Positions 4,505 through 46,739 of a stretch of DNA of 64,000 nucleotides are shown in pieces; positions within the stretch are counted from its first letter, which is position 1, and every line of letters begins with the position of its first letter. The notes under the pieces are model-generated. The model saw nothing but the letters and a program-made list of their open reading frames with translations, did not search any database and had not been told where the DNA came from. The position numbers and the translations under genes were made by a program. This stretch comes from Lytechinus pictus (Eukaryota): assembly GCF_037042905.1 (NCBI RefSeq), contig NC_087245.1:8062001-8126000 (forward strand), read 5' to 3'.

Positions 4505-4935
4505 AAGCCTGTTCACGGTTCTAAACTGCGCACGAGCAGAAAAAGGTCATTGGAGACAACCATGAAGGTGGCTTTCAAATTAACTGACATAGGCATTTGT
4601 GATTTGATGGTTATTCATGTATTCCTTTCAAAATATTTATCACATCCAAGCTGAAGAGTAATAAATAGAGCCTTCATAATCACTGGTATTTGACAGTAGC
4701 CTAAACAATAGTCAAATGTGCCAAAGGCAGACAATAAAACAGATTTCCAAACTTTATCCCTGATGTACTATTCTAGTCACCTGGTCTATACAATGCCTTT
4801 TGTTCTTAGAATTTGAATACTCTACTGGTAAAGCTTACGCAACATCTACATTTGAAAATAATAGTGCTTATCCTAATGAAAAATCACAAAGGTCATTTGA
4901 GAAAAGTTGATCATGAGCTAACCGTGAACTGGCTT
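4505..4935. mobile_element. MITE with AAGCC(T/A)GTTCACGGTT TIRs and a 2-bp AT target duplication, inserted in the LINE endonuclease domain
   Basis: AAGCCTGTTCACGGTT...AACCGTGAACTGGCTT. Removing the element plus one AT restores the reading TFQ-LTQLIT of the endonuclease domain. Confidence 0.75.
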
Positions 4936-10359: not shown

Positions 10360-10390
<31 letters not shown>

Positions 10391-13150: not shown

Positions 13151-14529
13151 TATCAATCACTGATCACATACAATCACTTACAATCACGCACACACAACGT
13201 ACACACGCACAAACAAATACATGTTTGTGTTTTTTTATGTTAATTTTCATTGTAATACTGATTGGAGATATATCGATTATTCTCACAAGGCCTCTGTGCT
13301 TTTCTTCTCAAGTCCTCTTTCACTCAATTATAATATTTAATCAAGGCAATATTTTGTTTATTTATAATATGTTTTACTCTGTATTATTTTATGCATTTCT
13401 AATTTGTTTGCATTGTACATATGTTTTTTAACCTATTTGAATTTGAATGAATAAAGAATTGAAGTGTATTGAATTGATGAAGAAGTGGCGTATAGTTTCC
13501 CTAGTATCGAATGCATATTGCATTTAAAACTCTATATAGATTTCTTCTATTTCTTTGTGGGCAGCCATTAATAATGTAAACAAAACTGACTTTGACTGAT
13601 AATTATTTTCGTTCTTACGAATATTAATTTCTTGAATGGTTCCACCACAAAACATTTATTTTCATGAGAAAATATCATTTTGAATCAAAATTTGCTTAAA
13701 GCCTCTGCCACCCATAAATCGTCAGTCAGAAAATAAATAAATAACAATACATGAGAATACTAAAAACAACCTAAATTGTAAAAAGAAAAAAAAAAGAATC
13801 TCGACATAGGTCTAAAGAGTTAGATGTGTGATGTCAATTTTTGTATACACTAGACAATGAGCTTTGCTACTGTATTCATCCTGATGGAAGAATTTTTTAT
13901 CACAATATAAATTGCTTAGAGAGATTAATCCATGTGTCAATTAAAGGATACACATATGCACGAAAGAAGTCATTCACTGTGAGTACGAACCTCAAAGTGA
14001 ATGGTTCTAAAGCTATCGACTTAGGCCTACATGTATTTTGACACCTTTGCGATTAAGTTCCATGAATGCAAACTATGGCATCTCGGGAAAATAAAGTCAT
14101 GAGAAACGTCCTTTTCGTCACAATCACACATAATTATATCAACCGTTTTACTCAGATTCTATAAGAGTTGTAGGCTTCATCGAAGCAACGTCGTAGATGG
14201 CGTAGTTGCTGATGCCGCACAGGATACCTTATTATTCAGTTTCCTGTATCAGTGCAGGTCGACCGGTGAATGAACATTATTATTCGTATTTGTAAGTACA
14301 ATATCCATTTTAATTTATGTTTTTTAACTTTACTAATATATTTTATGGAATATCAGTCATACAATATCAGAATAACAATTACAATTAACATCATGTTTTG
14401 TATCTATATTTCATTTGTCTGTGCCATCATATGCAGTGCCGTATGTAAGACGATATACCTTTTTTTAACAAGTCCACACCTAGTTTCCAACAATGCATAA
14501 AGCATTTAAAAGCATTTCCATTTATTTTA

Positions 14530-25271: not shown

Positions 25272-27299
25272 CATCCTACAAATTGGTTATTCAAATTTAA
25301 AAAAAAGATGACATGGCCAAAAATTGAATGAAAGCAATTTCATATTCATACAAGTCAAAACAATTTATCAACTGCTATACATGCAAAATTTAACTTTAAA
25401 TTTGGTAGGAAAATTACATTAGTTTTTGTGGAAACAAAAATCCTGTCAGCGCATTACAGTTTGCGCAGCACATTAAATTTACATTTTTAAACCTTTCCTG
25501 CAACTTTTTTTTAGCTTGTTTTCTTTATATTCTATGCAATGTGATGACCTATAGATTATCAAAAAATAAAAATTAATCAAAAATAGTTTTATTGTTTGTA
25601 CGGTTCGGATTCTCCTATAAGAAGACGCTCAGTTATCCATGAAAGATTTTTGGGAATGTGTATGAACTCCTTCTGTATACTCGATAGAATTCAATATGAG
25701 TATTAATCCAAAACTCTGATCTAGATTGTAAATAGAGCCAACATAGGACTAGGAAAATGTCCACTTTTGCTTGGAATTGCCCACAGTCATGTAGGCTGTA
25801 TTAGTCTTCGGAATATCGGGCTTTCTTTCTTATCCCAATACATATACATACCTACTACTATCACATCCCAAATTAATTTTAATAATTTTGTCATAATATA
25901 CCCAATTTAAAAATACGACATTTTTCACCCATACATGACACATTAGAAATCGTTTTTTCTTTCAGCATTTAAACTCACACATCAAAATTACATTTAGATG
26001 CATTTTTATGTTCAAACAGTGCTCACTATGGTGAAAATTATTTTCCTCATTCGCATTGTACATGATATCGCTATTTTTTATGGCAGCGATTTTAAATTTT
26101 ATAATACAGTATTTGTGGCAGAGTAAATTGTATGATTTGTTAGAAATAATAACATGCATTTTATGGTGCCCACTCTTGTAAAAAGTATAGTTTCACCTAT
26201 TCCCATTGCACATGATACTGTTAGGGCCCATGGCGGCTATTTTGAATTTAAAAGTACAGCATTTATCACCTATATGGCAAAAGAAATGATATATCTCGTT
26301 GGAAATCATGTTGCCAAACATTATATTCCACTCTTGCACCACAATTACAGGCATTTTGTAGTCAAGCAAAGCCAAATATTGTCAAAATTATTTGTCCCAA
26401 ATCAATTTTTTTATAATATAGTTAGGGACGTATGGCAGCCATTTGGAAAATCGAAATACAGCATTTATCAATACGTGACATAAGTAATGACGTATTTCGT
26501 TAGCAATAATGTTTTCAGACAGTATACTTCACTCATAGATGAGAATTGCATACATTTTAGTGCTCGCTCTTAAAAAAATTTATTTTTGGCCATTCATATT
26601 GTACACAATAAAGTATGTTACAGGGTTCTATGGCAGCAATTCTGAATATCAAGAAAATTATTTTCAGATATATTTCGCTCCTGGGACACAATTACAGCCT
26701 TCTTAAAGACAATGTGTGTGCAGTTTTGTGATTTCCATGGGTAATTTGCATATTTTGGCGGCCATATCGGAATTTGCGAGAATTGTTCAAGGTAATAATG
26801 CGAGTCACTATGAGATTCCCGGCCAAAATCTCTGAATTCTCTCTCGTGTTTAACTCATAAATGTCACGAATGGTCTCCAATTCAACTCCTTTTCTCCTTG
26901 GCCAAAATCACTCGTTTTTATCTCGTTTGGGTAAAAGGGGGTAGTTGTAAATTCGTTGAAAACAAGATATATTTTAGATTTTTGATACATCGTTGAGCCA
27001 ATGGCGAAGGTCAGAGAACTTCAATTCCTCTCAAATTTTGACAACGGTCGTAAACCATTGCTGAATCACTAGAAACCATCTCGATTTAATGTCCTTTTTT
27101 ACGAGCGGACGAAGGGCGCTCGCTCCCCAGATAGGTAATCGGATAGTCTGTATATTCATACATTATATTGGATATGATAATGGCATCGACCAATATGACC
27201 AGCACTTTCTATTTTGCAAGTACATAGTTAATGAATTAACAATGAAATGAATCAATGTATCATATACTTTAATTCATTTTTTCCACCAACACCATTGTT

Positions 27300-30200
27300 T
27301 ATTGTTTTTTTTTTCTGAAATTCACACCAAGCTGGTCTGGACAAACAACTGTACGTAGACTACGAAGTCTGGCCCCGATATAAATAGAAGGTCATTGGGC
27401 TGGGTGAAGTATAGAAATTAGCTAATTATGATTTTTTCCCTTTATCATTTACGTAATTTCGACTAAACATGTAAACAAATAAATAAAGTAAGAAATTTCA
27501 TGTTAAAACAAACTTTGAACGAAGAAAATTGATGCCCGAGAAGTCGACTTTCTGCACATGGAACATAGCCTCATGTCAAGACTTTTGGTATCGATTTATT
27601 ATTTTTTTCTTTTTGTGGCAGCACCATAATAAGGCTATTTCTTTCTGCTGCCAATTCTGAGCTGTCTCCTCGTTTCACAAATCATTTCGATTTCTTGTGT
27701 ATCTCTCGCATGAAGGAAATATAAAGCTTACCAACTAAAACTTTCAAATTAATTCCCGGCTACATCAAAATAATTATGGCACTATGGTGGTTGCAGCAGG
27801 TTTTTTTTTAAATGAACCTCGCATGAATTGAATTAAATCAGTGGCGTAATGAGCAAAAATAAATGAGGGAGCTGTATAGCTTTTCGGGTATATTTATGAA
27901 AAAGATTTTAACATTTTAAAACAATTACGATATTGTGATAAAATGTTGACATAATATTCAAATAATGAATTTCACACTTTCTCCTTTTTCTTTCTTAATC
28001 GTGATTTTCATTTCTTCTGGGGATATGGGGGGGGGTAAAGCGACACAAGGGGGGATATCTGTGCGCCACTGAATAGTTTTAGGTTAAGCTCCCCCACCAA
28101 ACTTCGAGGAAAAGGGGCCCAACTGCCCAAGGCTCTTAAACACCATACGATTCCACCTATTATCATGTGGTACTGCCCGCGCATCCGCAATCATTGAAAA
28201 TATTACGCAAGTTTTGTTTTCAAGAAAAAAACATGAATGATAAAAATTATTTTTAAAATCATTATTAAATAATTGATTAACTTATTTATTCCATCATTTA
28301 TCTATTTTCATTTACAATGCCAATGTTCAGGACTTAAATAGGCACACCGCACAGGCCTAACGAAAGAGCTGTTTTGATTAATGCAGAGACGCAAATAATG
28401 TGAAGATTACTTGACGTTTGTTTCGAGAACCTCTAGTCGTATGCTTATAGTATGCAAATACATTTCTTTCAGGAAGGATTTCCCTTAAATTAATACAATA
28501 TTAAGTCTATAGGAAAACAGGTGTATTCTCAAGCATCTGCTCCGCTGGTCATGCATTCTATATTGGTACCTGGAATTGGTATACATTAAATTGTCATCGC
28601 CATGAGAGTCATGTACAGGCGCTGGCGCAAAAGCATATTAAAATTCCTCAGTTTTTTTCCATTGGGCAACGCGCTTCCCGCCACCACTTATGGCAGTCAC
28701 ACTCCGGGTGAAATTTTGAGCTACTGTATATCCTTGGTTTCGCCATGGACATATCCGTTGAGAATACAAGCGTGTACGTGAAAGAGGGTGGAGAAAGGGA
28801 GAGAAAGCCTGATTGATTCAATCCATATATGTGCACGATGGTCCAACTCTTGGAGGGTGGCAATATATATTGATAGAGGAATTAAACTTCTGTTTATTCT
28901 CGTGTAGATCTAAACACTTCGATTTGTCCCATCATAGAGCTAATAGCTCTATGGTCCAATATAATGAAACAGATACTAGTACCATGAAGCTATTAGAGAG
29001 CTTCATGCTAGTACCATGGAGCTATCATGGAGCTCTACGCTAGTACTAGTACACAAACAAACTTTCATTGACTTTATGAACCAATCAAAGTAGATACACT
29101 GGCGTGAATGTAAGCAGTGGGGTCATACCCTTTAAAAAAAAAAAAAAAGTCCTATCCCATACTGCAAGGCAGTCAAGAGTGTATGATGAGATGACTTTGA
29201 TCAAATCAAGCCGTTAATGAAACATTCTGTTCGGACAGTAGTCCCCATATATCTTTGCAATAATTATATTCAATATATAGGGTGACTGACTGCATCATCT
29301 TTGAATATAATTTTAAAGATTGTTCACAATTTGTCCCATATTTTTTTATTTTTATTTTTATTTTAAATCATCGTGCTATATCCATGTATTTATATAAGCC
29401 TATTGTGGCCTGTGATGGATTATAATCACTTCATAAGGCATCCCTAGATAATAATGAAAACGACCAATTTGACCAGCAATAACTATTCTGCAATTAAGTA
29501 TATAATTTTTGTATTTGCAATTAAATGAAGCAATGTGTCATACATTACACCAAAGCCATTGTTTTTTTTAATGACACTCCCACCGACTGGTCTGGAGAAA
29601 GAGCGAAGTCTGGTCCAGTACAAACAGAAGGTCATTAGGCTGGGTGAAGTACAGAAAATGGCTATAATTATGATTATTTCCATTGCTCTTTTACACGATT
29701 TTGACAAAATATGCAAAAAATGAATAAAATATGAAATTTTATGTTAGAATAAACTTTGAACAAGAAATTTGATGCACGACAAGTGAAGTCGGCTTTTCGC
29801 ACATTGAACATAGCCTCATGTCAATACATTTGGTTTAGATTCATTATTTTGTTCTTTTGGTGGCAGCACCAATGCGGTTTTCTGTCTTCTATGCCGTCTT
29901 CTCGTTTATAGTATTATAAGCAAACATATTTGTTTTTATTCATTTTATCTATATTTTTAATTGCACATTTTTATCTCTCTTCTTTATCATTTACTATAAT
30001 TGTGAATCTGAATCATTTTTAATTCTCAATTCATTTTTTTTTCAATAAACCTTAAAGGGGTACTCCAGTCTGAACAATATTTACATCTAAATGAATAGAG
30101 TATAATTCACAGAGCACAATGCTGAAAATTTTATCAAAATCGGATTACAAATAACGAAGTATAATTGAATTTCAAAGTTTATCAATATTTTGTGAAAATA

Positions 30201-33200
30201 GTTATCTGCACGTTATGAATATTCATTAGGTGGGCTGATGATGTCACATCCCTACTCAGTGGCGTACCTAGGATTTTCCACAGGGGGGTGCAGCAAAAAA
30301 AAGGTTTTCTATCACAAATAACGGATATTGTACCAGAAAAAATTGTGACAAGCAAAAAAAAGGTCTTCAAGCCCGTCAGGGGAGGGCAATAAAGGTATTC
30401 AAGCTTGTCAGGGGGGGGGGGCAAAAAGGATGTTTCATGCTCGTCAGGGGGGCAGGGATACGTCCTTTGCATGGGTTGTGACTCGTCAGGGGGGGCAGAC
30501 TGCCCCCCATAGGTACGCTAGTGTCCCCACTGTCCTTTAAAAAAAAAAGTTATTACATTAAATAAGTATTGCTTTATTTTTCATACAAACGTGTGAATGA
30601 TGTGTCTCCCTTATAATGAAATAAGTTGCAGCAATGAATATCTGATGCACTTAATCTGTTGTCAATCCAATTTTTTTAGTTCTTGCTAGAAAAAGAATGT
30701 ATAAACCTAATTCCATAATACAAAAGAACAAGTGGGGATATGACATCATCACCTTGCTCACTGAATATTTATATAAAGACATGCCTAGAACTGTTTCACT
30801 GAAATAAGGCAAATCTTTAAAATGCCAAAACTTTATTATTCCTTGTCCGATTTGGACCCAATGTTTTGTTTGCCTGATTTTTATTTATCTCTTTAAATTA
30901 TATTATTTTCAGCCCGCGGCTGGAGTATGTATCCCTTTAGTTGAATTGAATTGAAAAAGTGGCATAATGAGCCAATTTTTTGTGAGGGCTGGATAGTATA
31001 GTATAGTATTCATTTTCCGTATTTAAAAAAATGCAAAACGGATGGATAGCCCATTTTCAGTTTAGTCTACATGACTATACTGTTCTTCCATGGGGTCCAT
31101 ATACAATTCAAAGTAAAAAGTAAACACATATGAAAGAAGCATAACATGTACGGTAAATCAAACAGAATAACAAAAGTGACATAATATATGTTGTTATAAG
31201 AAAAGATCATAAAATTAAATAGTTTGGCAAGAATTTACACTAAATATTTTATAAAATGAATGAATTGAATGAATTAGGCTGATATCACGTTCTTGAAAAA
31301 GGTTTTCACAAGGAGCAAGGAATAATAAAATGAATAATATGAATGTTCAAGTGAATAAAAATGAATATGTAATGATTGTAAACTGTGATCATAATAACAC
31401 AAAATTCTGGTTCACGCATACAATTTTAAGAGGACAACAATATAATAGAGTAAAAACATTGAAAGGAATTCAGGATAAAAGTACAGATTACATTGAGACA
31501 ACATAGAAATAAATATATAAAACATGTATATACACTGATTGGATTCATATGAGAAGTAAGAAATAAAAAGTATAAGGATCATGGCTTTTTGGACAACATT
31601 TATGAAAAAGTTGTCAGCGTGGAAGCAAAAATTCTGACATAAGTATTATGATAAATTTTGACATATTCAGAAAATGTATTTCACCTTTCTCTCCTTTCAA
31701 TTTTTTTTTTCCTTGGTCGTGATTTTTTTAGTCAGGAGCAAGCGCCCCAAAGCCAAGTTCTCCATATGCACGCCACTGAGTTTAAGTTGAGTTCCCCCCC
31801 CCCCAGCCTTCGTGGAAAGGGACCAACGCTCATAAACATCAAAATGATGAATCCTCCTGATATCATAATACTGCTCGCGCATATTAATTCATTCAATTTT
31901 ATTTACTTTTATTTACAATGACAATTCATGGGATTTTTAGTTGACAACAGGCCTAATAAACGAGCTGCTTTAATTTATGAGACGCCAATCGTGTGAAAAT
32001 TACATGTAGATTATTTTCTTATTGACGTATGTTTCGAAAACACATATTTACTGTATGTGCTTATAATATTCAAATTTACATTTCCTTCAGGAAGAATACA
32101 ATTTATAGGGAAAAGGTATACTCACAAACATCAACGTATTCCGCTGGTCATGCATGCTAATGGTGGACAATTCGTCGCCATGATATATATCACAAGCCCG
32201 CGCGAAAGCATATTCCCTCATTTTGTTTTCCAGTGAGAAAGTTCCCGCCAACACTGACATTACGCGCGAAATTTTGAGTTATATCCCTGGTTTCACCGTA
32301 GAAAATACACGCATACATGTGTAAGGACGATGGAGCGAGAGAGAAAGCATGATGAATTGTTCAATGAAAATATTAATCCATATATTGTTCACATTAATGT
32401 AAGTTTGTGCCAGATGGCCCAACCATCTTGGAGGATGGCAATATCCATAGAGGAAAGTCATGAAGAACTGCCGTTTATTCATCTGTAGATCTGAACGTTT
32501 TTATTTTGTCCAATGTAGGGTCCATGGTATGACCACGGACCTATGAATCACGATCAGCATACAAATGTTCATTTCATCTTCTTCAGACCTTGTAGTTTGA
32601 GCTAGGGGTTAAACCCTTGACCCTTGACCACTGCCAGGAGGACTGGAAATGTGCAGATGCAGAACGTGGATATATAACATCCACATCCAAGTAGGCAATG
32701 TATGCAAGCATTGCCCGCCTGTAATTACCAATAGTAATTTCATTAGAGATAATCAATACACACATTGTGAAGAGAAATGTATTTAAAAGAAAAAATGTTA
32801 ATTGATTAATGTTCAAATAATAACGCGTGAATTCATAATTTAATGCAGTCAAAATGTTTTATTTTGGCTAATTTTGCATTCTAAAAACGAAAAATTCCTC
32901 TGCGGTCGCTCCACTTTTGCAGTCAATCATGATATAATTTTCTAGTTTCTAATTCATTTTATCTCGATTTTTAAGTATACATATTTATTTGTTGTTTATT
33001 TATTGTAAATCTTAATCATTTCAGATTCTCATTATTTGCACGCTGCTGAGTACATAGTATTGTGCACAATTTATTCTACGACCGCAATAATGTTTTTCAT
33101 TATTATTAACGACTCCACATGAACTGTATGATTCCATTGACCTTTAAATAATAAAACTTTGATCATGAACCAATCAAACCACCCTTACATACACCATGGA

Positions 33201-33560
33201 CATGATGGATAGCTCTATGCATACACAGGCGTGGATTTGAGCGGTGTGCTCTTGTCATTCTTATTCTGGTATATTTGTAGAAGCGAGTGATATATTCTTT
33301 TTTTAAATACTTCAAAACAGTTGAGTGTATGATCAATGGCATTGATCAAATCAATGCCGACAGGACAACAACATTTCTGACATATCTCTACAATTTTATT
33401 CATTTTATAGGGTAATTGCATCATCTCTGAATACAGTTTTAAAGATTGTTCAAATTCTGTCCTTTCCGCTATATTTTCCTTTTCGATTTAATCAACGTGA
33501 TATTTCCAAGTTTTTTTAAGTTGTGGACTGTGTCGGCGTATTATTTCATAAGACATCCCT
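27300..33560. repeat. Old, diverged tandem duplication (copy A about 27300-29450, copy B about 29585-33560 with extra insertions)
   Basis: Colinear shared blocks, e.g. GAAGGTCATT(G/A)GGCTGGGTGAAGTA near 27390 and 29630, TCCGCTGGTCATGCAT near 28540 and 32140, and TTCATAAG(G/A)CATCCCTA near 29430 and 33545. Confidence 0.8.
30052..30940. mobile_element. Kolobok-like TTAA MITE with nested hAT-type MITE (30257-30523)
   Basis: TTAA|AGGGGTACTCCAG...CTGGAGTA...CCCT|TTAG. The nested CAGTGGCGTACCTA...TAGGTACGCTAGTG element has an 8-bp TSD TCCCTACT/TCCCCACT. Confidence 0.8.
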
Positions 33561-33794
33561 ATGGCCGATAACTATCATCTAAATATCTCACCTCTAAAAA
33601 GTTAGTAAAACTAGTTTTCATTTCAATTTTAGTTTTATTTTATTGTTCACATGGAAATTCGTTCTGCTCATTTTGTAAACATTTGTAATAAAGTACCTAA
33701 TACTTAAATGATTCGACTTAAAACATTTTATCCTTATTTGCCAACTGTGATGTAACAACTAATTTATATTTCGTTTTCCTATTCTTATTAAGTT

Positions 33795-35700
33795 TTCGTT
33801 CTTCTTCCCCTTACTTTCCACTGTAATAATAAGCACATTACTTTCAACAACTTACTAATCTTCAAGGCTCATGCACTCACTATGCTCACTTACATACCCC
33901 TTGATGACGTTTTAGACACTATTCTGTCTTTCAACTGCTAAAAATTTAATTTCCATAGCAATAGCCATCCTGAAAAAAAAATCGAGATAGGCCTTATCTG
34001 TTTAAACACAATAAGTGAGAAATGGTAGTATATTCTTGTATTCACGGAGCCCCATATGCATAGCCCTTGATGTGATAACTACTGTAAACGTAAGTTGAAA
34101 GACGGTTTGGACAACATTCTCCCGACCATTCTGTCCTATGATATAGTAATAATTGAAAACTATTTCACTCGCCTAGTTCCCACATTGATTTACATCCATC
34201 TGGGTCGAGGGAAGGAAAATAAAACTTTCCATCTCCGGCGATCAAACGAGGTCGGGAGACTCTTTCATGAAATTTGTAAACGTGTTTCGTAGACAACAAA
34301 ATCCAAGGATATCACTAAAATTGCCAGAAGTCAGTCCTAACAATAATGGCACCCCGTCTTGACCCCCTGACCCATGGTCTGCACGGTATTTTATATAGCT
34401 AGGTCCAGTATATAGCTAGCTCTATGGTCTTCGTTCTTCTTCCCCTTACTTTCCACTGTAATAATAAGCACATTACTTTCAACAACTTACTAATCTTCAA
34501 GGCTCATGCACTCACTATGCTCACTTACATACCCCTTGATGACGTTTTAGACACTATTCTGTCTTTCAACTGCTAAAAATTTAATTTCCATAGCAATAGC
34601 CATCCTGAAAAAAAAATCGAGATAGGCCTTATCTGTTTAAACACAATAAGTGAGAAATGGTAGTATATTCTTGTATTCACGGAGCCCCATATGCATAGCC
34701 CTTGATGTGATAACTACTGTAAACGTAAGTTGAAAGACGGTTTGGACAACATTCTCCCGACCATTCTGTCCTATGATATAGTAATAATTGAAAACTATTT
34801 CACTCGCCTAGTTCCCACATTGATTTACATCCATCTGGGTCGAGGGAAGGAAAATAAAACTTTCCATCTCCGGCGATCAAACGAGGTCGGGAAACTCTTT
34901 CATGAAATTTGTAAACGTGTTTCGTAGACAACAAAATCCAAGGATATCACTAAAATTGCCAGAAGTCAGTCCTAACAATAATGGCACCACGTCTTGACCC
35001 CCTGACCCATGGTCTGCACGGTATTTTATATAGCTAGGTCCAGTATATAGCTAGCTCTATGGTCTTCGTTCTTCTTCCCCTTACTTTCCACTGTAATAAT
35101 AAGCACATTACTTTCAACAACTTACTAATCTTCAAGGCTCATGCACTCACTATGCTCACTTACATACCCCTTGATGACGTTTTAGACACTATTCTGTCTT
35201 TCAACTGCTGAAAATTTAATTTCCATAGCAATAGCCATCCTGAAAAAAAAATCGAGATAGGCCTTATCTGTTTAAACACAATAAGTGAGAAATGGTAGTA
35301 TATTCTTGTATTCACGGAGCCCCATATGCATAGCCCTTGATGTGATAACTACTGTAAACGTAAGTTGAAAGACGGTTTGGACAACATTCTCCCGACCATT
35401 CTGTCCTATGATATAGTAATAATTGAAAACTATTTCACTCGCCTAGTTCCCACATTGATTTACATCCATCTGGGTCGAGGGAAGGAAAATAAAACTTTCC
35501 ATCTCCGGCGATCAAACGAGGTCGGGAAACTCTTTCATGAAATTTGTAAACGTGTTTCGTAGACAACAAAATCCAAGGATATCACTAAAATTGCCAGAAG
35601 TCAGTCCTAACAATAATGGCACCCCGTCTTGACCCCCTGACCCATGGTCTGCACGGTATTTTATATAGCTAGGTCCAGTATATAGCTAGCTCTATGGTCT
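33795..35700. repeat. Near-perfect tandem triplication of a 635-bp unit
   Basis: The same short ORF recurs at 34095, 34730 and 35365 (spacing 635). Only isolated substitutions separate the copies. Confidence 0.97.
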
Positions 35701-36804
35701 AAGGCATTTATACTTTCTGGCAGAAGACGATTTTGTTACAAGCTGCACATGCATGGAGCATGAAGCTAATAGCTTCATGCATGGAGGGAAGGAGATAAAT
35801 TTTTTTTAAATTTACTTAACAGTTGCTACTGATGGGTTATTTATCTGTACATTGATAATCCATAGATCTTTAATTCGACTTTAAAGGTGCACCCCCGCGC
35901 ACGGACCTCAACATTTCTTAACTACAAAATATGAGACTGGATTCCTCTTAAGCCCGCGGTGCACAATATATGATTCGTAGCGATCCGAAAAGTAAATAAA
36001 TTGTAATAACATTTGATATAACTTATATTAACATTCCATCCAATAAAATCTTAGCGTTCAGAGTAGTGTTACTGAAATCGAAATTCTGTCTTGTTCGAGC
36101 CTCCGTGTACTTGAACAAATTTATATTGATAATGAAATTCATCCCTATATATAACCTCTAAATTATTGATTGTCCTACATTATATAGTAAAAGAAATATA
36201 TACAACGCTGTTTACTATACGAACATTAGAGTAATTGTTTAAAAGGTTTAAATAAGGGTTAGTGTTTAACTCTTATAAGCAAAAAAGTTTAATTTTCAAT
36301 ATCTAGTAATCTTCAATAAATTAAACAGGATTGTTTAAATGGTTAAACAAATACTGCAAGGTTCATATGTAGTAAACAGCGTTGTATAAAATGTTAAACA
36401 GCGTATTTACTGTGTATCATAATATGCCCTTGTTTACTTTTGATAAATGTTCAATTAGTTAATGTTCTAATAGCGTCCCTCTTCATTTGGCACAAGTTTT
36501 CCTATTATAAAGATTCTGAAAATACACATTTTAAATTAATGAATATATTATATCGAGCCTCGAGGAAAACGATGCTGTTGCTAAAATCAAATGATAGGCT
36601 ATGTACTTTAGTTTCATGGGTTAAAGCTTTGTGAGTGCATGGGTAGATAAGTTAGCATTTTTGCTTTGTTTCAAAAGAGCGCCATTTCGGGAAAAATGTG
36701 CCCTTTTCCCCTGTTCCCCCCCCCCCCCCCCACTTTCACCTTCGCTCCGCCACCCCTAAATTTCTATGAGCTCTTATTAGGCCATTTATAGGCCAAATAT
36801 AATT

Positions 36805-39800
36805 TTCCTTGTCTGATGACAGCTCACTGTTGATTTCGTTCAATTTAAAGGTACACATATGATTCTTAAAATGTTAGGCAACATACTGTCCACACAAAAA
36901 TTGATTTAAACTTTTATCCAACTTTGGGTAGTTTTCAAACAAAGCAGACATTATTGGTTTAAAACTACCCAGAATTGGATAAAGTTTTAACCGATTGCTG
37001 TGTGGACTGTATGTTGCCCAACAGTTTTATGAGTGTGTGTTACAACACTTCTTAAACACACCGTTTTGGCAGATGTAGATTACTGAAATGAAATTGTAGC
37101 TGTAATTTGAATTAAATCATCTTGATCCATATCCCGTTATTGTATTCCAATGCAGATCTTCTCTTGAGTAGGATCGACTGTATTTTGTTTAAATAATAAT
37201 AACAACACATTGATATAAAGTCAATTTTCGGTGCTCTTCCCATCAATTATTACCACTGCAACTTGGCTGTTACATACAGCTGTGAGATAACTTTGTATTC
37301 TTGATATTAAACAGATCTTACTGGTGTAATTTTTTTTTTAAATATATCTTACCAACCACCAACAATTTTTGACAACTGTTTGCTATTTAGGCCCACCTTT
37401 CACAAATGCAAATTCAATTAAAAAGGCTTTGGTTCATTTAAGATAACTTCATCTGTCATTGTCTGTATGACTGAATCTCTGATATATCGAGATCTTACAT
37501 CAATACATGTATATTATATAGGCATTTGTTATATTTCTTAGATAGCCCTTAGCCTACACTTTAACAACCCCTACATGGTTGGGTCACGGTGATGAGTTGT
37601 TCTGATGGGGAATTACACGACTGTGTTTGTGTTCTCTTTAATCCGTTTAAATTATGCAAATTAACTTTTAATGGAAGTCATGTAAATTGTATAATATCCA
37701 GTTATCTCTGTGATTCATATAAACAATATTCACTTGATTTTTCTGTAAAATGTGCAAAAAATTCTAAGTCATGTCAAGCCTGGCAATTCCAGCCTGCTGC
37801 TTCTACGGCTACGCCTGACACATCCCGCCTTGAGTTCCGGGGGAATTACAGTCCGGGTCGGGCATCATTCCTGCTGGATATTTTGAAAGATTTAAAGCTA
37901 TTCATAATATTTATGTTTTCTCCTTCTTTTCGATAAGATCCGTATAATTGTTCCGTTTGACAATATAATCAAATGTCATTTCAACAGGGTTTTCGTTAAA
38001 TTTGCTCCTCTGAAATTACATGCAACATGTTTTGGCCTATATGAAAATGAGGTTATTTGAAAACTGTCTAAGAAAATGAACCTTTCTCCAGCATCCATAA
38101 CAAAGCATTCGTTATTTGATAAAAACGAATCGTACAAGGTTGATTTTTTTAATTCTGATTAATTATACAAATCAATAATTTATTTCATCATTTGTATGAT
38201 TTTATTTGCATTTGCTGATTTTTAAACAAATATTTCTGTTTTGAAATTTTACGCCCTCTATGGTTGAACATTGATTTAGTATGAATATTATAGAATTATT
38301 GTAACTGTTTTCTTTCTTAAAATAGTTTAAAAGTAACATGACTTTATACCCTAATACAATGATATTATAGTGTATTACTTTTCCATCTTTTTAAGACCGG
38401 ATACAATGTATAAGAACTTCTTAAATGCTGTCATTTTGTGATGTTTGAAGTCAAATGGCCTACTTTTTTCATTATATTATGTATGTACAGGTAAAAGGGC
38501 GAATGGGATGTTTTTCCTTGTCTAATTATACTTCACTGTTGCTTTCGTTCAATTTACATGTTCACACATGTAGTATACACTTCTCAAAAACATGCATTCA
38601 AACCAAAGTTTGACAGACTTCCCAAATGAAATTGTAAAATGCTATAATTTAAATGAAAGTTAATAATCTTGATCCATATCGCGTTATAATATCAACCAGA
38701 TCTTCTTTTGAATAGGACTGTATTTTTTATAATAATAATTAAAAATACACTCTTAAACTGTTGGGTAACTAACTGTCCACACAACTATTGGTTAAAAATC
38801 AAATTCTGGGTAGTTTTCAACCAGTACTGAAGTTTTCACCCAAAGCACACATTATTGGTTTGAAACTACACAAAATTGAATAAAGTTTTAACCAATTGTT
38901 GTGTGGACAGCATGACATGTTGCCAAACATTTTAGGAGTGTGGGAAACATTCTAGAATATCATATCTTGCCAACCACCAAGGATATTTGACATCTGTTTG
39001 CTATTTAGACCCATGTGCACCTTTCACAAATACAAATTAAATTAAAAGGCTTTGGTTCATTTAAAATAACTCCATCTGTATGACTGAATCTCTGATATAT
39101 CGAGATCTTATGTGTATATATCTTACGCGTATATATTATATATGTTATATAGGCATCTGTTTTATTTCTTAGATAGCCCTTAGCCTATACACTTTGATAA
39201 CCCCCTTCATGGAAGGGTCACGGTGATGTGTTGTTATGTTATCATGGTTATATGGAATTACACTATAGGTACGTGTGTATGCGTTCTCTTTAATCCGTTT
39301 CAAATATGCAAATTAACTTTTAATGGATGTCATGTAAATTGTATAATATCCAGTTATCTCTGTGATTCATATAAACAATCTTCACTTGATTTTTCTGTAA
39401 AATGTGCAAAGAATTCTAAGTCATGTCAAGCCATGCAATTCCAGCCTGCTGCTTCTACGGCTACGCCTGACACATCCCGCCGTGAATTCCGGGGGAATTA
39501 CAGTCCGGGTCGGCCCTCATTCCTGCTGGATATTTTGAAAGATTTAAAGCTATTCATAATATTTATGTTTTCTCCTTTTCGATAAGATCCGTATAATTGT
39601 TCCGTTTGACAATATAATCAGATGTCATTTTAACAGGGTTTTCGTTAAATTTGCTCCTCTGAAATTACATGCAACATCTTTTGGCCTATATGAAAATGAG
39701 AATATTTCAAAAGCTGTCTAAGAAAATGAACTTTTCTCCAGCATCCATAACAAAGCATTCGCTATTTGATAAAAACAAATCGTACAAGGTTGATTTTTAT

Positions 39801-40885
39801 GCTGATTAATTAGACATATCAATAATTCATTTCATCATTTATATGATTTTATTTGCATTTGCTGATATTTTAACAAATATTTCTGTTTTGAAATTTTACG
39901 CCCGCTTTGGTTTAACATTGATTCAGTATGAACATTATAGAATTATTGTAACTATTTTCTTTCTTAAAATAGTTTAAAAGTAACATGACATTATACCATA
40001 ATACAATGATATTATAGTGTATTCTTTTCCATCATTTAAGACTGGATACAATGTATAAGAACTTCTGAAATGTTGTCATTTTGCGATGTTTGAAGTAAAA
40101 AGGCCAACATTTTTTCATTATGATTATGCATGTACTGATAAAAGAGTGAATATGATGTTATTCCTTGTCTAATTATACTTAACTGATGCTTATCCGTTCA
40201 ATTTACAGGTTCACACGTGTAGTATACACTTCTCAAAAACATAAAATTGTAAAAATGCTATAATTTGAATAAAAATTAATAATCTTGATCCATATCCACT
40301 TTATAGTATCAACCAGATCTTCTTTTGAATAGGACTGTATTTTTTTTCATGATAACTGAAAATACACTCTTAAAATGTTGGGTAACATATTATTGTCCAT
40401 ACAACAGTTGGATACAAAAATTATCCAACTATGGGTAGTGTTCAACCAATACTGTGAATTTTTCACCCAAAGCACACATTATTCATGTTATTGGTTTAAA
40501 ACTACACAAAATTGAATTGTGTGGACACTGTGTTGGCCAACATGTTGAAGAGTGTCTTACCAACCACCAACAATTTTGACAACTTACTGTTTGCTATCAC
40601 AGCAGTTCAATTCATTTAAAAAAGGCTTTTGGTTCAATTAAAATAACTCCATCTGCATGACTGAATCTCTGAATTTATCGAGATCTTACATTTGAGAACC
40701 CCTAGACTTTTGGAAGTGTCACGGTGATGTGTTGTCCTGATAGGGAATTACACGACTGTGTTTGTGTTCTCTTTAATCCGTTTCAAATATGCAAATCATT
40801 TTTAATGGATGTCATGTAAATTGTATGCCCAGCTATCTATGTGATTCATATAAATAATCTTCACTTGATTTGTCGGTGAAATGTG
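36805..40885. repeat. Diverged tandem duplication of a ~1.65-kb unit (two full copies and one partial)
   Basis: Similar ORFs at 37589 and 39223. Shared blocks such as ATGACTGAATCTCTGA..ATCGAGATCTTA occur near 37470, 39080 and 40660. Confidence 0.9.
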
Positions 40886-41239
40886 CAATGGGAGCAAATA
40901 CTCGAATGGCGTTGAAGCTCTGAATTTTAAAACTTTCTCTGAAACTTTAACCATGTTAACCTGCTCTAGTTTTGATATTTTTATATAACTCGATTTACGA
41001 AGAAAAAAGAGCTCAACATAATTATGAAAGGGATGATGCATGCTAGATGCGGGACTTTTACTTTCCATGCATGCGAGGCATGGAAACCTCTGTGATTTAT
41101 CTTGGCAAAAAAATGTAATTTCGCTCATAATAAGCGCTTCCTTTTTTGTATGATTAAGAAACTTCAGTGATATTCAAAACAACACAGGAAATGGATGTGC
41201 AGCGATATAGAAATGTTTCATCGCATAAACATTTTCATA

Positions 41240-42092
41240 TATATATCTCGGAATTCACATTGACGCTGAATTGAAATGGGATATTCATATACATAACATG
41301 TGTCAGAAAATCAGTAAACTGGTTAGTTTTCTTGGACGGTTAAGACATGTTGTTAACGAATCAAGCTTAAATTTGATATACAAATCCGCCATTTTGCCAC
41401 ATTTTGATTACGCTAACGTCATTTGGTATTCAGCTCCACAAGGTTCTCTGTCAGCCCTTCAAAAACTCCAGAATAGAGCTGGCTGTATAATTATGAAAAT
41501 AAATCCCTACTCTTTTGTCTCCAATCAACATATTCATGAGACTTTGAATTGGGAATTTCTTGAATGCCGCTATAAAAAGCATATATGTACAATGATTTAT
41601 AAAATATTGCACAATCTTTTTCCAAACTATATGTCTGATAACATTTCTAGAAGAACTTTAAATTATTCGCTTCGTTCGAACCAAAACCTTAATTTACCCA
41701 AACCAAATTCTAACAATTGTAAAAAGACATTTTTCTATAGGGGCATATCAATTTATAATCAATTGCCCAATGAAATTCGTAATGCACCAACTTTAAGTTC
41801 CTTTCATACTCTATTATATAATTATTTAGATTGAGCATTTGTATTTCTTTTTTCTTTTTGTCTTAGTAATTTTTTTATTTTTTTTTCTGTCAATGTATTT
41901 TACTCTGAAATGTTTTTTTTTTATGGTGTATATTACTTTGTATGGTAAATGTAGGACCCCAAGGAAGAACAGCAGTATTTTGAAAATACAGCTGAATTGG
42001 GTGATCCTCCGTTATTGTATGTATCTCTCTTGTATATTGTGTATTTTTTTTTTATCTGATTCGGAAATAAAAACAAACAAACAAACAAATAT
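41240..42092 (+). mobile_element. 5'-truncated CR1/L2-clade LINE 3' end with (AAAC)n tail
   Basis: YLGIHID..LKW, IYKSAILPHFDYANVIW, LQKLQNRAG and TFFYRGISIYNQLP in and just before ORF 41271-41834. Ends in AATAAA followed by AAACAAACAAAC. Confidence 0.88.
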
Positions 42093-42878
42093 AGCATGAC
42101 ACGAATTAAATGCCTCCACCCGTGAGCAGATACTTTGCTTTAAAATTGCTTGCTGAAAAGCGGAAGAAATAGTACTTTGTGACTCGACTCGGGGAGTGTT
42201 AACCCATATTTCGAGACAGATGGCACCTTTGTTTTCCCACTGAAATATCCATAAAAAGGGCTAAGGGTCAAGAAGGTCGAGAATGGTTTCTCAATGCTGA
42301 ATAGATTACCTTCATACTAATAGGTCCATGATGTGACCATACAGCTATTACACACTGAGGGGTATAGTATAGTTTGGGAATCTCCAAAAATTGTTGAATT
42401 TGAATCAATAAAGAAAAATCAGACAAGAATAATGCTGACAATTACATCAAAATCGGATGTAGAATGAGAAAGTTGGGACATTTTAAAGTTTAGTTTATTT
42501 TTCACAAAACAGTATATGCACAATTTAGTCACATGCAAATGACAGAATCGACGATGTCTCTCACTGACCAGTTCTATTGTGTTTTATTGTTTGAAATCTA
42601 CAATATTTTAATCTTTACAGATTTGGCAATAGCTGATGTGACCATAGCTCTATGGTGTGACTAACAATCGTTTACCATGTCATTACCGAGTCATACAAGA
42701 TTGATTGTTTGAACACGATTCTTATAAAAATCAATCACTCATTTCATCATTTGGATAATTTTATTTCCATTCATTGAAATAGAAATACGTTCGGGTGCTA
42801 ATAATGCCTCTCCATAGTGATAAGACACAGTACGAACGGGGGCGGTTCTAGACGATTTTTTTTATGGGGGGGGGGGCG

Positions 42879-43540
42879 TGTTGCACCCACAAATGTAATA
42901 ACACTTTACCCACAAATGTTATAACGCCCACAAATGTAATAACACTTTACCCACAAATGTAATAATTTCACCCACAAATGTAATAATGCACTTTTTGAAA
43001 CAACCGGGTCTGGAAAAAAGACTTTGGACTTATACAATAGTTTTTAAACAACCGGGTCTGGAAAAAAGACTTTGGACTTATATAATAATCTTTTAATTAA
43101 CCGGGCTGGAAAAAAGACTGGACTTATATAATAATTTTTTAAACAACCGGGTCTGGAAATAAGACTTTGGACGTATATTATAATTTTTTAAACAACCGGG
43201 TCTGGAAAAAGACTTTGGACTTATCTCCAACAAAGACTTTGCACTTTTGTGCTATATGAAGCCATTACTATAGGATCTTAGTTTAGAACGGATTAGCCAA
43301 AAATCCCTTCAAATTTATTACATTTGTGGGTAAAGTCATTATTACATTTGTGGGCGATCAAAAATTATTAGGCCTACATTTGTGGGTAAAGTGCACTATT
43401 ACATTTGTGGGTGAAATTATTACATTTGTGGGTAAAGTGTTATAACATTTGTGGGCGTTATTACATTTGTGGGTAAAGTGTTATTACATCTGTGGGCGTT
43501 ATTACATTTGTGAGCGATTATTACATTTGTGGGTGCAACA
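42879..43540. mobile_element. TGT...ACA foldback element with arrayed subterminal CCCACAAATGTAATA motifs and a central ~56-bp minisatellite (Ginger-like, non-autonomous)
   Basis: TGTTGCACCCACAAATGTAATA...TATTACATTTGTGGGTGCAACA. Flanks are GGGCG and AGGCG. Confidence 0.75.
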
Positions 43541-45527
43541 AGGCGCTTGAGAAAATTTTGGCGTTGGTATACTCATTACAATGAAAATGACCTATTGTTG
43601 GTAGCCTTATACTGACCAATAAGCTGTACACCCCCTCCATTAAAATATTTTCAATATGCGAGGGAGCGTAGCGACCGAGCGAAAAAAAAAATCACACTAT
43701 TAAAATGCTTGAAAACACCCTGATGGGTGTTAGGGCATTTAACGATAATGGGGGGGGGGGGGGTATACAGGACTGGTACGTTAAGGATCTTTTTCTAAAT
43801 AGCGATGTTCTCAAATTTTAGAGACCTTGAATGCAAAAAGGTTTTATAAACATAGCAAGATACGGGGTTTCATGTAATGATACCCTTTTATTTGAGGGAA
43901 TGTGGTGACCAGGTATAACATTTTGAAGTGAAACCTTGCATTTGGAGCACTTTGTGAACATCCGAATACATCTTCAACATCGTTAAATTACTTAATTGGA
44001 TACTCAGCATGCATACAGGCTGCAAAAGAATGACACCCCAATGATCACGAGCTGCCTTGTATAACACATAAGTCAACACAATAGAGTATTGTAGAGAAAA
44101 GAGTCAAATCATTCTACATGTTGCTTCTATCAGGAGACCGGGCGATCTTGTGAGACCGCGACGTTTGTAGAACGAGCTGACCAAGGTGTGAACATATAGG
44201 TATATTACAGGCAAATATAAGTATATCCCGCTGTTTTTCTTATGTTCTTATAATAAAGAACCACTGGTTTTCTCATTTGCTTTCCTCGGATGAATAAAAA
44301 TGTTGGCATTGAAGATGATCGCCCTTTATTTTCAATTGGTCTAAAGCCAATTCTTCCAAATGCCAACTCGTCTACTCTCATAATTATGATTTACCATCAG
44401 CCTGTCCACTATCCACATGCCCTAATTTCCAATTTCCAATTTGTCCACTCACCAAAATAACCAGTTGGTTTAAAAAAGCTTGTAGTATTTTCCAAATTTT
44501 ATCCTTTTTGATTTCTCAACTTTGCCCATCGTCTTCGAGAGGACATTTCCCTTCCACTTCTTAGCAATAAACATGCCATCAAGTGGTCAATAATGACCCT
44601 CACACAGCACACTCACTTGTGACTCACTATAAATTCTCTGAATTGGTACCTCTCTCTCTCCCCTCTCTCTTCGTTTACATCCTACATCACATTTGGGATG
44701 AAAACTACTACTTTCTTCTTTGGCACACTTCTCAAAGTTTTCTACTTTAGTAAACACGTATTTTGAGAACGTCATCAAATTCCATCATCTCACTTGGAGC
44801 AAATTAACTTCATCCACTGTGTCTTCCATTTCATCTCACATACAAGTTATCGTACTATATACCGTTTCTCCGTCAAAAATAAAAAATACCGCTTGTGCTA
44901 GCCAAGTTAGTTTTGTGATAATAATATGTGTAGTTTTGTGTATACACATACAAATACTGGGATCGTGCAAAAATTGGAACACTTTGAATACATGTATATT
45001 GGAGGATTGTCTGTCGGATTTCTCTACACGCATAAAGTCGGTAAGAGGAGATTGGCTCTTTAGTACTTGGTTGTAGCATGGACCTATTACCTATTCGTAA
45101 TAGGTCCATGGTTGTAGTTCCTCCAAAATACTCCTGATGGAATTTTAACTGGAGATTGTGGCTTGTTTCCATTACATCTTATAACTATAACCAACCCCCG
45201 CTTCAAGCCAATTACTCCATATATCACTTGGACTAAATACATTGGTATTAGACTAACCACAGGCTTGGCCTTTAAAAGTCAAGGACACTTTCACCTTAGA
45301 ACACCGTTATTTAAAAGCAGAATTGAACCAAAGTTCAAATTGTTATAACTTTAAGAAAAAGAAAAATTAGACAAGTTGATAGGTGAAAGTTGAATAGCGG
45401 ACAAATTGCTTCTCCAACTCCTTTCACCATAGAGCACCATTCTGTTTTATTTATTTTCTCCCTTCTACCACGACATTTTATGACCAACGCTGGATCCCCT
45501 TTAATGTCCATATTCATGGGAGGAGGG

Positions 45528-45588
45528 CACTAGCGTACCTACGGGGGGGCAGGGGGGCACTCTGCCCTCCCTGACGAGCTTTTGAAGA

Positions 45589-45619
<31 letters not shown>

Positions 45620-45757
45620 TTTGCTTGTCAAATTTTTTCTGGTACGAAAATCTTTATTTTGTATTGATGACCTTTCTTTTCTTTTTTTTGCTTGTCAAAT
45701 TTTTTGGCGGCCAATTTTGCCCCCCCCCCCCTGTGGAAAATCCTAGGTACGCCACTG
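45528..45757. mobile_element. hAT-type MITE, 8-bp TSD
   Basis: CACTAGCGTACCTA...TAGGTACGCCACTG flanked by perfect GAGGAGGG at 45520-45527 and 45758-45765. Confidence 0.88.
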
Positions 45758-46131
45758 GAGGAGGGTATAGATCCTCCATACCTAGAAATATTGGTGCATA
45801 TGTAATAAACACACTCAAATGGACCCCGCCCCCGCATACAAATCATTTGACCCGGGATTTGACCTATATTCATTCAGTTCTACTCAAATCTCATTACATA
45901 ATACTCGTAATATTAGTGCACCATATTGTGTTGAATTATTGCTAATTCTACCATGGATCCTATAGAACCATGATTTTACAAAAAGAAACCTCTGCAGATT
46001 ATAAGTATGTTTAATTTTAGACATTCTTCAGACAGTCTCTGTTATTCAAACATCCTGAAAAATAAGGATATTTACCGATCGAATCTTGCGATGTATACTT
46101 AGGTATAACCATCAAGAATTACCTTACGCTT

Positions 46132-46739
46132 TTAAAGGAATGGTCCGGGCTGAAAATATTTATATCTAACTAAATAAAGTAAAATTTACAGTGCAATATG
46201 CTGAATATTTCATCAAAATCGGAAAACAAATAACGAAGTTATTTAATTTTAAAGTTTATCAATATTTTGTGAAAACAGCTACATGCACATCGTCATGAAT
46301 ATTCATTAGATGGGCCGATGTCACCTACCCACTTTCCCTTTTCTTATGTTATTACATGAAATCATAAATGTTTCATTTTTCCATTATGTAAATGATATGT
46401 CTCATTTTATGATGAAATAAGTTGCGGCAGTAAATAACTACTGCATTTAATCTGTTGTCCATCCAATTGTTTTAGTTCATGGTAGAGAATGTTTGAATAA
46501 ACCTAATTTCATATAATAAAAGTCAAAAGAAGTGGGGATATGACTTCATCCGCCCACCTATAATGAATATTTATAAAGACATGCCTAGAAGAACCGTTTC
46601 ACCGGAATAATGCAAATCTTTCAAATTCAATACTTCGTTATTTGTTATCCGATTTTGATAAAATTTTCAGCATTTTGCTTTGTGAATTTTACTTTATATA
46701 TTGAGATATAAATATATCCAGCCTGGACCATCCCTTTAA
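46132..46739. mobile_element. Kolobok-like TTAA MITE
   Basis: TTAA|AGGAATGGTCCGGGCTG...CAGCCTGGACCATCCCT|TTAA with long subterminal inverted repeats. Degenerate relatives lie at about 59993-60590 and 62500-62944. Confidence 0.8.

Follow-up and report, generated by a model that had tools for sequence, protein, structure and literature searches.

Mini-palindromes between 7-bp direct repeats in a CACTA-like transposon as probable excision scars of P-superfamily elements

The host transposon and its eight inserts

The 64,000-nucleotide window analysed here (G000:C1:8062001-8126000 of the 812-Mb Lytechinus pictus genome) holds a copy of a CACTA-like transposon of about 21.5 kb, within which lie eight mini-palindromes, i.e., inserts of 12-34 bp that run from CAT to ATG between 7-bp direct repeats (Table 1). 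All eight were confirmed at the positions given in the first-pass annotation, which had read them as fossil excision footprints of P-like transposons. Our analysis supports that reading: the inserts share their termini with longer elements, their counterparts across the genome show a length edge, a P-like open reading frame (ORF) lies inside an element bounded by terminal inverted repeats (TIRs) and a target site duplication (TSD), and copies of the host without the scars exist. We consider it very probable that the eight mini-palindromes are donor-site scars of cut-and-paste transposons of the P-element superfamily.

The direct repeats are perfect at five of the eight inserts (CTAGTAC twice, CATACAC, CATGGAG and GTTGTAG) and carry one mismatch at the other three (GTCCCAT/GTCCAAT, ATGTGAC/GTGTGAC and ATTCTAC/ATTTTAC). 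The target bias noticed earlier was recovered: all 7 distinct TSDs have A at position 6, and 5 of the 7 have T at position 2. The proposed termini, CAT.. and its reverse complement, hold for most inserts but not for insert 3, whose end is TACG instead of YATG. A strict scan of the window for a 7-mer (at most one mismatch), a CAT..ATG segment of 8-50 bp with palindromic ends and the same 7-mer gave 9 matches vs 0.885 +- 0.86 (maximum 4) in 200 dinucleotide-preserving shuffles, so the pattern is far more frequent than in shuffled sequence. Six of these 9 matches are previously claimed sites, and the remaining three (11584, 46363 and 51373) resemble chance; the claimed sites at 29015 and 33195 were missed because their present-day ends are altered. 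A slightly stricter scan found 7 matches in the window vs 3 (one of them convincing) in 548 kb of other DNA from the genome, a background that was drawn from around P-like genes and from beside the window and is therefore a non-random sample.

Table 1. Coordinates in the window of the host transposon and of the scars, with the state of each scar in the eight host copies (C1, window copy; other C numbers, the remaining copies)
Feature	Position	Strand	Composition	State in host copies
Host CACTA/EnSpm-like transposon copy	26806..48311	+	CACTATG...CATAGTG ends, 3-bp TSD AGT/AGT; all eight scars inside	
Scar 1	28926..28960	.	GTCCCAT + CATAGAGCTAATAGCTCTATG (21 bp) + GTCCAAT	Present in all 8; older copies with perfect TSD GTCCAAT/GTCCAAT
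Scar 2	28976..29014	.	CTAGTAC + CATGAAGCTATTAGAGAGCTTCATG (25 bp) + CTAGTAC; right TSD copy common to scar 3	Present in C1, C5, C19; C2, C8, C4, C3 keep CATG + CTAGTAC only, with flank deletion; C15 empty (single CTAGTAC left of scar 3)
Scar 3	29008..29052	.	CTAGTAC + CATGGAGCTATCATGGAGCTCTACG (25 bp) + CTAGTAC, then extra TAGTAC	25 bp in C1, C2, C8, C4, C3, C15 (6 copies); 14 bp in C5, C19
Scar 4	33188..33226	.	CATACAC + CATGGACATGATGGATAGCTCTATG (25 bp) + CATACAC	25 bp in C1, C5, C19; 16 bp (CATGGATAGCTCTATG, same TSDs) in C2, C8, C4, C3; C15 empty (single CATACAC)
Scar 5	35752..35786	.	CATGGAG + CATGAAGCTAATAGCTTCATG (21 bp) + CATGGAG	Present in C1, C5, C19; empty (single C(A/G)TGGAG) in C15, C4, C3, C8, C2
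Complex block with scar 6	42318..42661	.	Contains three ATGTGAC/GTGTGAC copies	Common to all 8; in C15 the insert begins CATAGAGCTATTAC and the half scar is longer
Block, half scar	42318-42330		TAATAGGTCCATG	
Block, repeat copy	42331-42337		ATGTGAC	
Block, 298-bp insert	42338-42635		Family terminus at its start	
Block, repeat copy	42636-42642		ATGTGAC	
Block, scar 6	42643-42654		CATAGCTCTATG (12 bp)	
Block, repeat copy	42655-42661		GTGTGAC	
Scar 7	45070..45117	.	GTTGTAG + CATGGACCTATTACCTATTCGTAATAGGTCCATG (34 bp) + GTTGTAG; ends are those of the 842-bp element with 31-bp TIR	Present in C1, C5, C19; exactly empty (single GTTGTAG) in C2, C8, C4, C3, C15
Scar 8	45945..45979	.	ATTCTAC + CATGGATCCTATAGAACCATG (21 bp) + ATTTTAC	Present in C1, C5, C19, C15; region missing in C2, C8, C4, C3

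Using positions 42300-42680 of the window as a query, we found the host at seven other places in the genome, scars included, for a total of eight copies. Copies C1, C5 and C19 are 98-99% alike, while C2, C8, C4 and C3 are 91-97% identical to the window and C15 is 88-96% identical; the C5 copy has a different flank, with TSD ATG/ATG. A 3-bp TSD is described for CACTA/EnSpm transposons in passages of PMC4158355. The host resembles these transposons in its CACTA... termini and 3-bp TSDs (the latter seen in two copies), but it differs from them in being large (21.5 kb), in having only about 8 nt of its ends as inverted repeat, and in the transposase: of the 17 ORFs with 90 aa or more in positions 20000-52000, 13 were scanned, and these gave neither a Pfam match to a CACTA-type DDE transposase nor any gene context. 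Judged from its sequence, the host copy is likely to be a non-autonomous giant CACTA/EnSpm-like element.

The host copies also differ in features other than scars. At 33792-35696, the window copy alone has three tandem units of 635 bp, where C5 and C19 have a single unit. Every unit closes with a terminus like that of an element (reverse complement CATAGAGCTAGCTATATAC), next to which stands GTCTTCG or GTCTAAG; this 19-mer occurs only 5 times in the genome and thus does not represent a high-copy family. At about 35792-35799, copies C5, C19 and C15 hold about 820-860 bp or more that are absent from the window copy; either the window copy lost this segment or the other copies gained it. A different high-copy repeat of ~250 bp (4645 first-look candidates, about 87-88% identity) occupies 42382-42631, inside the ATGTGAC block; with this repeat inside, the interpretation of 42338-42635 as a simple miniature inverted-repeat transposable element (MITE) between two TSD copies was dropped. 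The assignment of scar 6, which sits in this complex block, is accordingly tentative.

For four of the eight scars (2, 4, 5 and 7), other host copies have an exact empty site, in which the 7-mer stands once and the insert is absent. The oldest form of scar 4 is the 16-bp one, and the 25-bp form of the window has 9 extra nt. The scar states nest in one order, from none to scar 1 and then to scars 3, 6 and 8 before the split of C15; scar 4 and the insertion behind scar 2 came later, and scars 5 and 7 came last. All eight scars were inherited within one repeated transposon and are therefore not eight events at this locus alone. The idea that such scars form a countable record of excision events needs qualification: they were multiplied passively with the host repeat, and raw counts overstate the number of events.

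Contigs from other individuals were also compared. In X3, X5 and X10, scar 1 is present and position 28981 is joined to 29059 via GACA or GACAAACA, so that neither scar 2 nor scar 3 is there; scars 1-3 are all missing from one X5 contig, in which GTCCAAT stands once. The form in X7 is that of the C2-group host copy, and one public contig spans 33053-33289 with 9 gap letters only, so that scar 4 is present in it. A contig joint from 45057 to 45198 was considered as an empty site and rejected as not clean. With regard to the proposed test for polymorphism between haplotypes, copies without scars do exist, but the allelic reading of the contigs was dropped, since the host is multi-copy and the contigs, mostly 90-95% alike, may be paralogues rather than alleles.

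Two further observations concern the surroundings of these scars. At 28974-28982, one contig form reads GATAGACAAAC and others read GATACTAGTAGACAAAC, a 6-bp TA-CTAG-TA difference in the style of Tc1/mariner-type excision; if it arose in that way, the target CTAGTAC itself may have been made by an older scar. One more scar lies 13.6 kb upstream of the window, at L121:6384-6417 (G000:C1:8048384-8048417), and consists of GTTTGAC + CATGGATCATTCGCTCCATG + GTTTGAC.

Parent families and the length of the scars

The 14-mer tip of scar 7 has 655+667 occurrences in the genome vs 1+0 in the reversed control, and CATRRAGCTATTAC has 677+680 vs 1+9. The 60 terminus loci fetched with these two words hold, once collapsed, 25 unique scars, with a perfect 7-bp TSD in 22 and one mismatch in 3, together with intact element ends and several one-sided remnants. 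Of 30 occurrences of the scar 7 tip, 16 belong to scars, 10 to intact TIRs and 4 to remnants with one end only. The expectation that longer elements carry the same termini was borne out by a non-coding element of 842 bp and by an element of 1289 bp. The former has a 31-bp TIR, CATGGACCTATTACGAATGGACATTCAACGA, its left and right ends being identical over 31 nt and diverging beyond, and the latter has the TIR CATAGAGCTATTACAGAAGGAG; both have perfect 7-bp TSDs. For CATGAAGCTA, no long element was seen among the 30 loci sampled. Thus, the scars, scar 8 presumably included, consist of a 7-bp target duplication around the outermost nucleotides of inverted ends whose families are found at full length in the genome.

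Perfect 7-bp TSDs were found on eight intact elements, and these, the scars and the coding element described below match the 7-8 bp TSD that is a trait of the P superfamily. The TSD logo of the symmetrised scars is G/A-T-N-N-N-A-C/T, with T2 and A6 at 90%. Footprints of the hAT/Transib/Mutator type, i.e., palindromes of flank or TSD with a TSD of 8, 5 or 9 bp, are not matched, the inserts being element TIRs and the TSD 7 bp; TIRs of the Galileo type, which span hundreds of base pairs and have internal repeats, are not matched by the 31-bp TIR of the 842-bp element. Candidates for long autonomous elements were rejected: L059 and L060 are 842-bp elements with nested inserts, L097 contains no element, and the extension of L030 is a truncated copy. 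A 28-mer pattern for the CATGGACCTACYAC family found 2 sites only. Separately, a 35-bp scar with unlike ends (CATGGAGCTATTAC tip and CATGGACCTATTTCG tip) occurs at two places, L073 (G000:C1:4561645-4561679) and G000:C2:25688371-25688405, which may represent one duplicated locus or elements with mixed ends.

The length of the mini-palindromes was assessed with the pattern CATRRASCTA-N-TAGSTYYATG, counted across the genome by gap class. Gaps of 0-30 (20-50 bp) gave 2969 sites vs 2 in the reversed control, of which the gaps of 15-30 (35-50 bp) accounted for 520 vs 2, and gaps of 31-60 (51-80 bp) gave 73 vs 0. The 3042 mini-palindromes of the genome are therefore 2449 of 20-34 bp, 520 of 35-50 bp and 73 of 51-80 bp. 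Among the 50 sites listed of the 35-50 bp class, 37 measure 35-38 bp; among these listed sites, 9 of 10 37-mers are CATGGACCTACTACTCTG[T/A]CAGAGTAGTAGGTCCATG, i.e., 18+1+18, and a single recurrent palindrome accounts for 13 of 15 38-mers. In the 51-80 bp class, several sites consist of at least two scars around one common 7-mer (C2:16848634, C9:23002030, C2:60178022 and C3:76508262-76508387). The first-pass annotation had predicted a ceiling near 34 bp. The fall-off is indeed sharp, but the edge lies at about 34-38 bp and not exactly at 34, which suggests that 17-18 nt are kept per end, perhaps 19-20 nt in one family.

The 38-bp palindrome, CATGAAGCTATTACGAG-CTAT/ATAG-CTCGTAATAGCTTCATG, was seen at L088/L089, in G000:C1:43605121-43641309 and elsewhere, with flanks rich in GACATAT/AGAGACAG. 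Its appearance is that of a scar, or of a pair of TIRs, that another repeat captured and amplified.

To define the retained ends, 23 of the 25 sampled scars were compared with the TIR of their family, 14 being from the 842-bp family while the other 9 have CATRGAGCTATTAC tips; L073, which has unlike ends, and L082, which has no reference TIR, were left out. Owing to the design of the search, one side of every scar in this set measures 14 nt or more. Retained TIR runs reach 18 nt at most in the 23 scars, though the TIRs are 22-31 nt long, and the junctions consist of an overlap of 0-4 nt or a filler of 1-11 nt. The retention limit of 18 nt and the edge at 34-38 bp match the long staggered donor cleavage that is a trait of the P superfamily, the position of the cut being deduced from the scars.

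Some of the scars recur with the same sequence: the 27-mer CATGGACCTATTACGAATAGGTCCATG is found in 3 of the 14 scars of the 842-bp family, CATGGACCTACTAGTAGGTCCATG in 4 of the 50 listed sites and the 37-mer in 9 of the 50. These recurrences would fit mini-palindromes that are themselves tiny mobile elements, i.e., micro-MITEs made of two TIR tips, which insert alone and produce a fresh 7-bp TSD. We regard this explanation as very improbable, because the 14 scars of the 842-bp family comprise 11 sequences of 17-34 bp with varied break points and fillers, which a master copy would not give. Additionally, the recurrent forms are found at microhomologies (AAT, CG and CTAG), like the commonest Drosophila junctions in the portions of PMC2895639 considered here; the lengths show a hard edge and no preferred full-TIR length; and the recurrent 38-mer has no TSD and is carried inside another repeat.

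The fillers, for their part, include copies of nearby TIR sequence, such as AATAGGTAATAGG in scar 7 and one 48-mer, and passages of PMC4168063 report that the Drosophila P element makes internal deletions by inefficient gap repair. On this basis, the scars could be internally deleted elements produced by interrupted gap repair (synthesis-dependent strand annealing) and not direct end joins. Nevertheless, interrupted gap repair predicts broad retained lengths, whereas 0 of 23 scars exceed 18 nt per end and the counts fall from 2449 to 520 to 73 with increasing length; we judge it to be improbable and favour the direct joining of excised donor ends.

P-like coding sequences between the termini

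The genome contains 41 matches to the Pfam profile PF21787, which represents the N-terminal RNase H domain of P-like transposases. One of them lies within a complete 5.9-kb element (L056:607-6497) that has CATGGACCTAC... TIRs and the perfect 7-bp TSD ATTAAAG on both sides. The 496-aa ORF inside this element (L056:3695-5182) matches PF21787 with 54.8 bits (cut-off 24.6). The left TIR is CATGGACCTACCACTCTGACTGGACATTGATCGA and the right TIR is the same minus 13 nt, the right subterminal sequence is that of short elements of the abundant CATGGACCTACTACTCTGA family, and a nested 746-bp repeat adjoins the TIR. What the right TIR (L056:6475-6497) lacks is nt 8-20 of the left one, CATGGAC being joined to TGGACATTC, and the deletion falls within the putative staggered-cut zone. 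A 630-aa ORF at L055, 31% identical to the L056 ORF and in the same clade, has the Drosophila P transposase 6P5A as its sole PDB match (E 3e-13).

A second connection involves the 842-bp element, the parent of scar 7. In the L133+L134 region, an end at 4571 is 83% identical to the first 96 nt of this element, and 13904-14241, on the same strand, corresponds to its nt 340-690, with pieces of a P-like ORF between them (9936-11323). Based on this colinearity around the P-like ORF, the 842-bp element appears to derive by deletion from a coding element of the P-like type. The L056 ORF (truncated) and the L133+L134 ORF pieces thus match the superfamily trait of a P/THAP9-type RNase H domain between TIRs. 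At two other loci, which belong to one clade with L056 and L133+L134, one CAT-type terminus lies upstream of a P-like ORF in the same orientation, at a distance of about 2.8 kb (L139+L140) and of 44-89 bp (L141+L142). Apart from those of L056, no CAT-type TIR/TSD pairs were found around eight long P-like ORFs and ten further P-like loci. A tblastn search with five P-like proteins found no match in the 60 terminus loci or the window, and at the nucleotide level L056, L133/134, L139/140 and L141/142 have nothing in common except nested repeats that are unrelated to them.

The earlier prediction of full-length THAP/P-transposase elements with these TIRs stands in one part, the P-like ORF in the TIR/TSD-bounded L056 element, and falls in another, since that ORF is truncated and no THAP domain was detected in it. 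At E<=5, the L056 and L055 ORFs show only weak zf-AD-like matches and a sub-threshold match to the helix-turn-helix (HTH) profile of Tnp_P_element. The GTP-binding insertion domain was found in neither of these truncated ORFs; PF21788 matches are present in L051 and L052, which have no such TIRs.

Several points weigh against attributing the scars to P-type excision. Where inspected (L088/L089), the recurrent 38-mer lies inside another repeat and lacks a TSD. The ceiling is not exactly 2x17, given the recurrent 37-mer (18+1+18) and a 36-mer (18+18), so at least 18-19 nt were kept in some families, and the position of the transposase cut is itself deduced from the anatomy of scar sequences. The L056 ORF is single-copy and ends at position 90 of the 137 in the RNase H N profile, i.e., within that domain, the right TIR of its element is 13 nt short, and the long relative of the 842-bp element in L133+L134 has no right end. 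Among the 28 P-like loci, L056 is the only complete element, with one terminus each at L133/134, L139/140 and L141/142, and none of the elements found with these TIRs is both intact and autonomous. The N-terminal THAP DNA-binding domain that is a trait of the superfamily was not detected in the L056 and L055 ORFs even at E<=5, though it may lie in an upstream exon, and the fully domained P-like genes L051 and L052 have no such TIRs nearby.

The lack of an intact autonomous copy and of a THAP domain, and the count of one complete TIR+TSD+ORF element and three one-ended cases among 28 P-like loci, would also fit elements of another superfamily, non-P or undescribed, that has a 7-bp TSD and a deep stagger, the P-like ORFs being coincidental. 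This carries very little probability in our estimation: L056 has both TIRs, a perfect TSD and a P-like ORF inside; the homology to the 842-bp element is colinear on either side of a P-like ORF; and the 31-bp TIR, the CATG start, the 7-bp TSD of the form G-T...A-C and the retention of ~17-18 nt match P traits published in the passages of PMC7776569, PMC2895639 and PMC4168063 that bear on them. An origin from P-superfamily excision remains the reading that we favour.

Other P-like sequences were observed in the genome. L051:4277-6727 (G000:C12) has an open 817-aa P-like ORF with HTH, RNaseH_N, GTP-binding, RNaseH_C and THAP9_C domains and no CAT-type TIRs nearby, and L057 (G000:C4) is a partial copy of that ORF, 94-96% identical, which apparently starts at a splice-acceptor-like site; the two could be a domesticated THAP9-like gene plus retrocopy, or an active element. 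L052 (G000:C4:26165501-26175500) and L053 (G000:C21:9243301-9253300) are stretches of at least 10 kb that are 99.4% identical, each with an open 959-aa P-like ORF; they could have arisen by segmental duplication or belong to an element of more than 10 kb. At G000:C6:17788503-17804583, at least 12 fragmentary P-like RNase H matches within 16 kb, with no CAT-type termini found there, suggest a tandem array of decayed copies.

Proposed mechanism and comparison with known systems

P-element footprints are textbook laboratory products, and the scar type itself is already known. What is new here is the setting of the scars in a host element, their chronology from copy to copy with exact empty sites, and two loci linking these TIRs to P-like ORFs. 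In our literature search we met with no account of natural P-type scars from echinoderm-like genomes, which is not proof of absence.

In the mechanism that we propose, a P-like element would insert with a preference for G/A-T-N-N-N-A-C/T and duplicate 7 bp. The transposase would then cut the 3' strand at the tip of the element, whereas the cut in the 5' strand would lie some 17-18 nt into the TIR, perhaps as deep as 19-20 nt in one family, leaving each chromosome end with a long 3' tail of TIR sequence. End joining would fuse these tails at short microhomologies or with few filler bases, and the expected product has, between the two TSD copies, at most about 17-18 nt from each end of the element. 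Both TSD copies would survive, and the scars would accumulate along the host lineage and be copied whenever the host multiplies. Since the favoured 7-mer is then present twice and open to further insertion, such a process would explain the scar arrays around one 7-mer. In the window, the sites that look re-used are CTAGTAC, with three full copies and a partial one, and ATGTGAC, with three copies.

The P-footprint architecture is fixed thousands of times in a non-insect animal genome. The scars provide an estimate, drawn from sequence only, of where the transposase cuts, about 17-18 nt in, as in flies, and the series of host copies (empty, scarred, scarred again) dates the events relative to each other. 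Excisions perhaps outnumber surviving copies, as suggested by the sampled termini of one family, about half of which are scars and a third intact ends. Owing to their short length, the scars escape repeat masking and may therefore be misread as regulatory palindromes. As a tentative generalization, which we hold to be possible rather than probable, scar spectra may reveal the chemistry of a transposase from sequence: the cut would lie 17-20 nt in, with a family-specific depth, the fly-type long stagger would be ancient and tunable, and scars would seed their own re-use, giving rise to hot spots and arrays of 2-4 scars on one 7-mer that are multiplied by host repeats.

Among the known systems, Galileo is described in passages of PMC4168063 as having a 7-bp TSD with the consensus GTANTAC or GTATTAC. 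Our scars resemble Galileo/1360, as far as these passages go, in the 7-bp TSD, its palindromic preference, its G-T start and its A-C end. In contrast, the TIRs of Galileo are very long and internally repetitive, whereas those found here are of 22-31 bp, and TSD position 3 prefers T here and not A.

Zebrafish Pdre2 starts with CATAC and has a 13-bp TIR and 8-bp TSDs, according to portions of PMC10983969. Pdre2/THAP9 is likewise a P-like element of a deuterostome, with a TIR that starts with CAT and internally deleted copies in the genome. It differs from the elements studied here in the length of both its TIR and its TSD, and the portions of that paper drawn on here describe no genome-wide catalogue of scars.

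A further parallel is the Drosophila P element, for which passages of PMC7776569 describe 31-bp TIRs and a cut of the 5' strand 17 nt inside. In the repair junctions of P{wa} (Tables 1-3 in the available parts of PMC2895639), a TSD is followed by up to 17 nt, a microhomology or templated insert, up to 17 nt and a TSD, and the same parts report occasional deletions past the TSD in repaired donors. The scars in the window and their relatives share with this element the 31-bp TIR with its CATG start, the scar layout and the one-sided flank deletions. They differ from it in that the TSD is 7 bp and not 8, the linked ORFs have no detected THAP domain, and some families seemingly keep 18-20 nt. Finally, the fly footprints are laboratory excisions, whereas the scars reported here are natural, fixed and ancient, in an animal far from flies.

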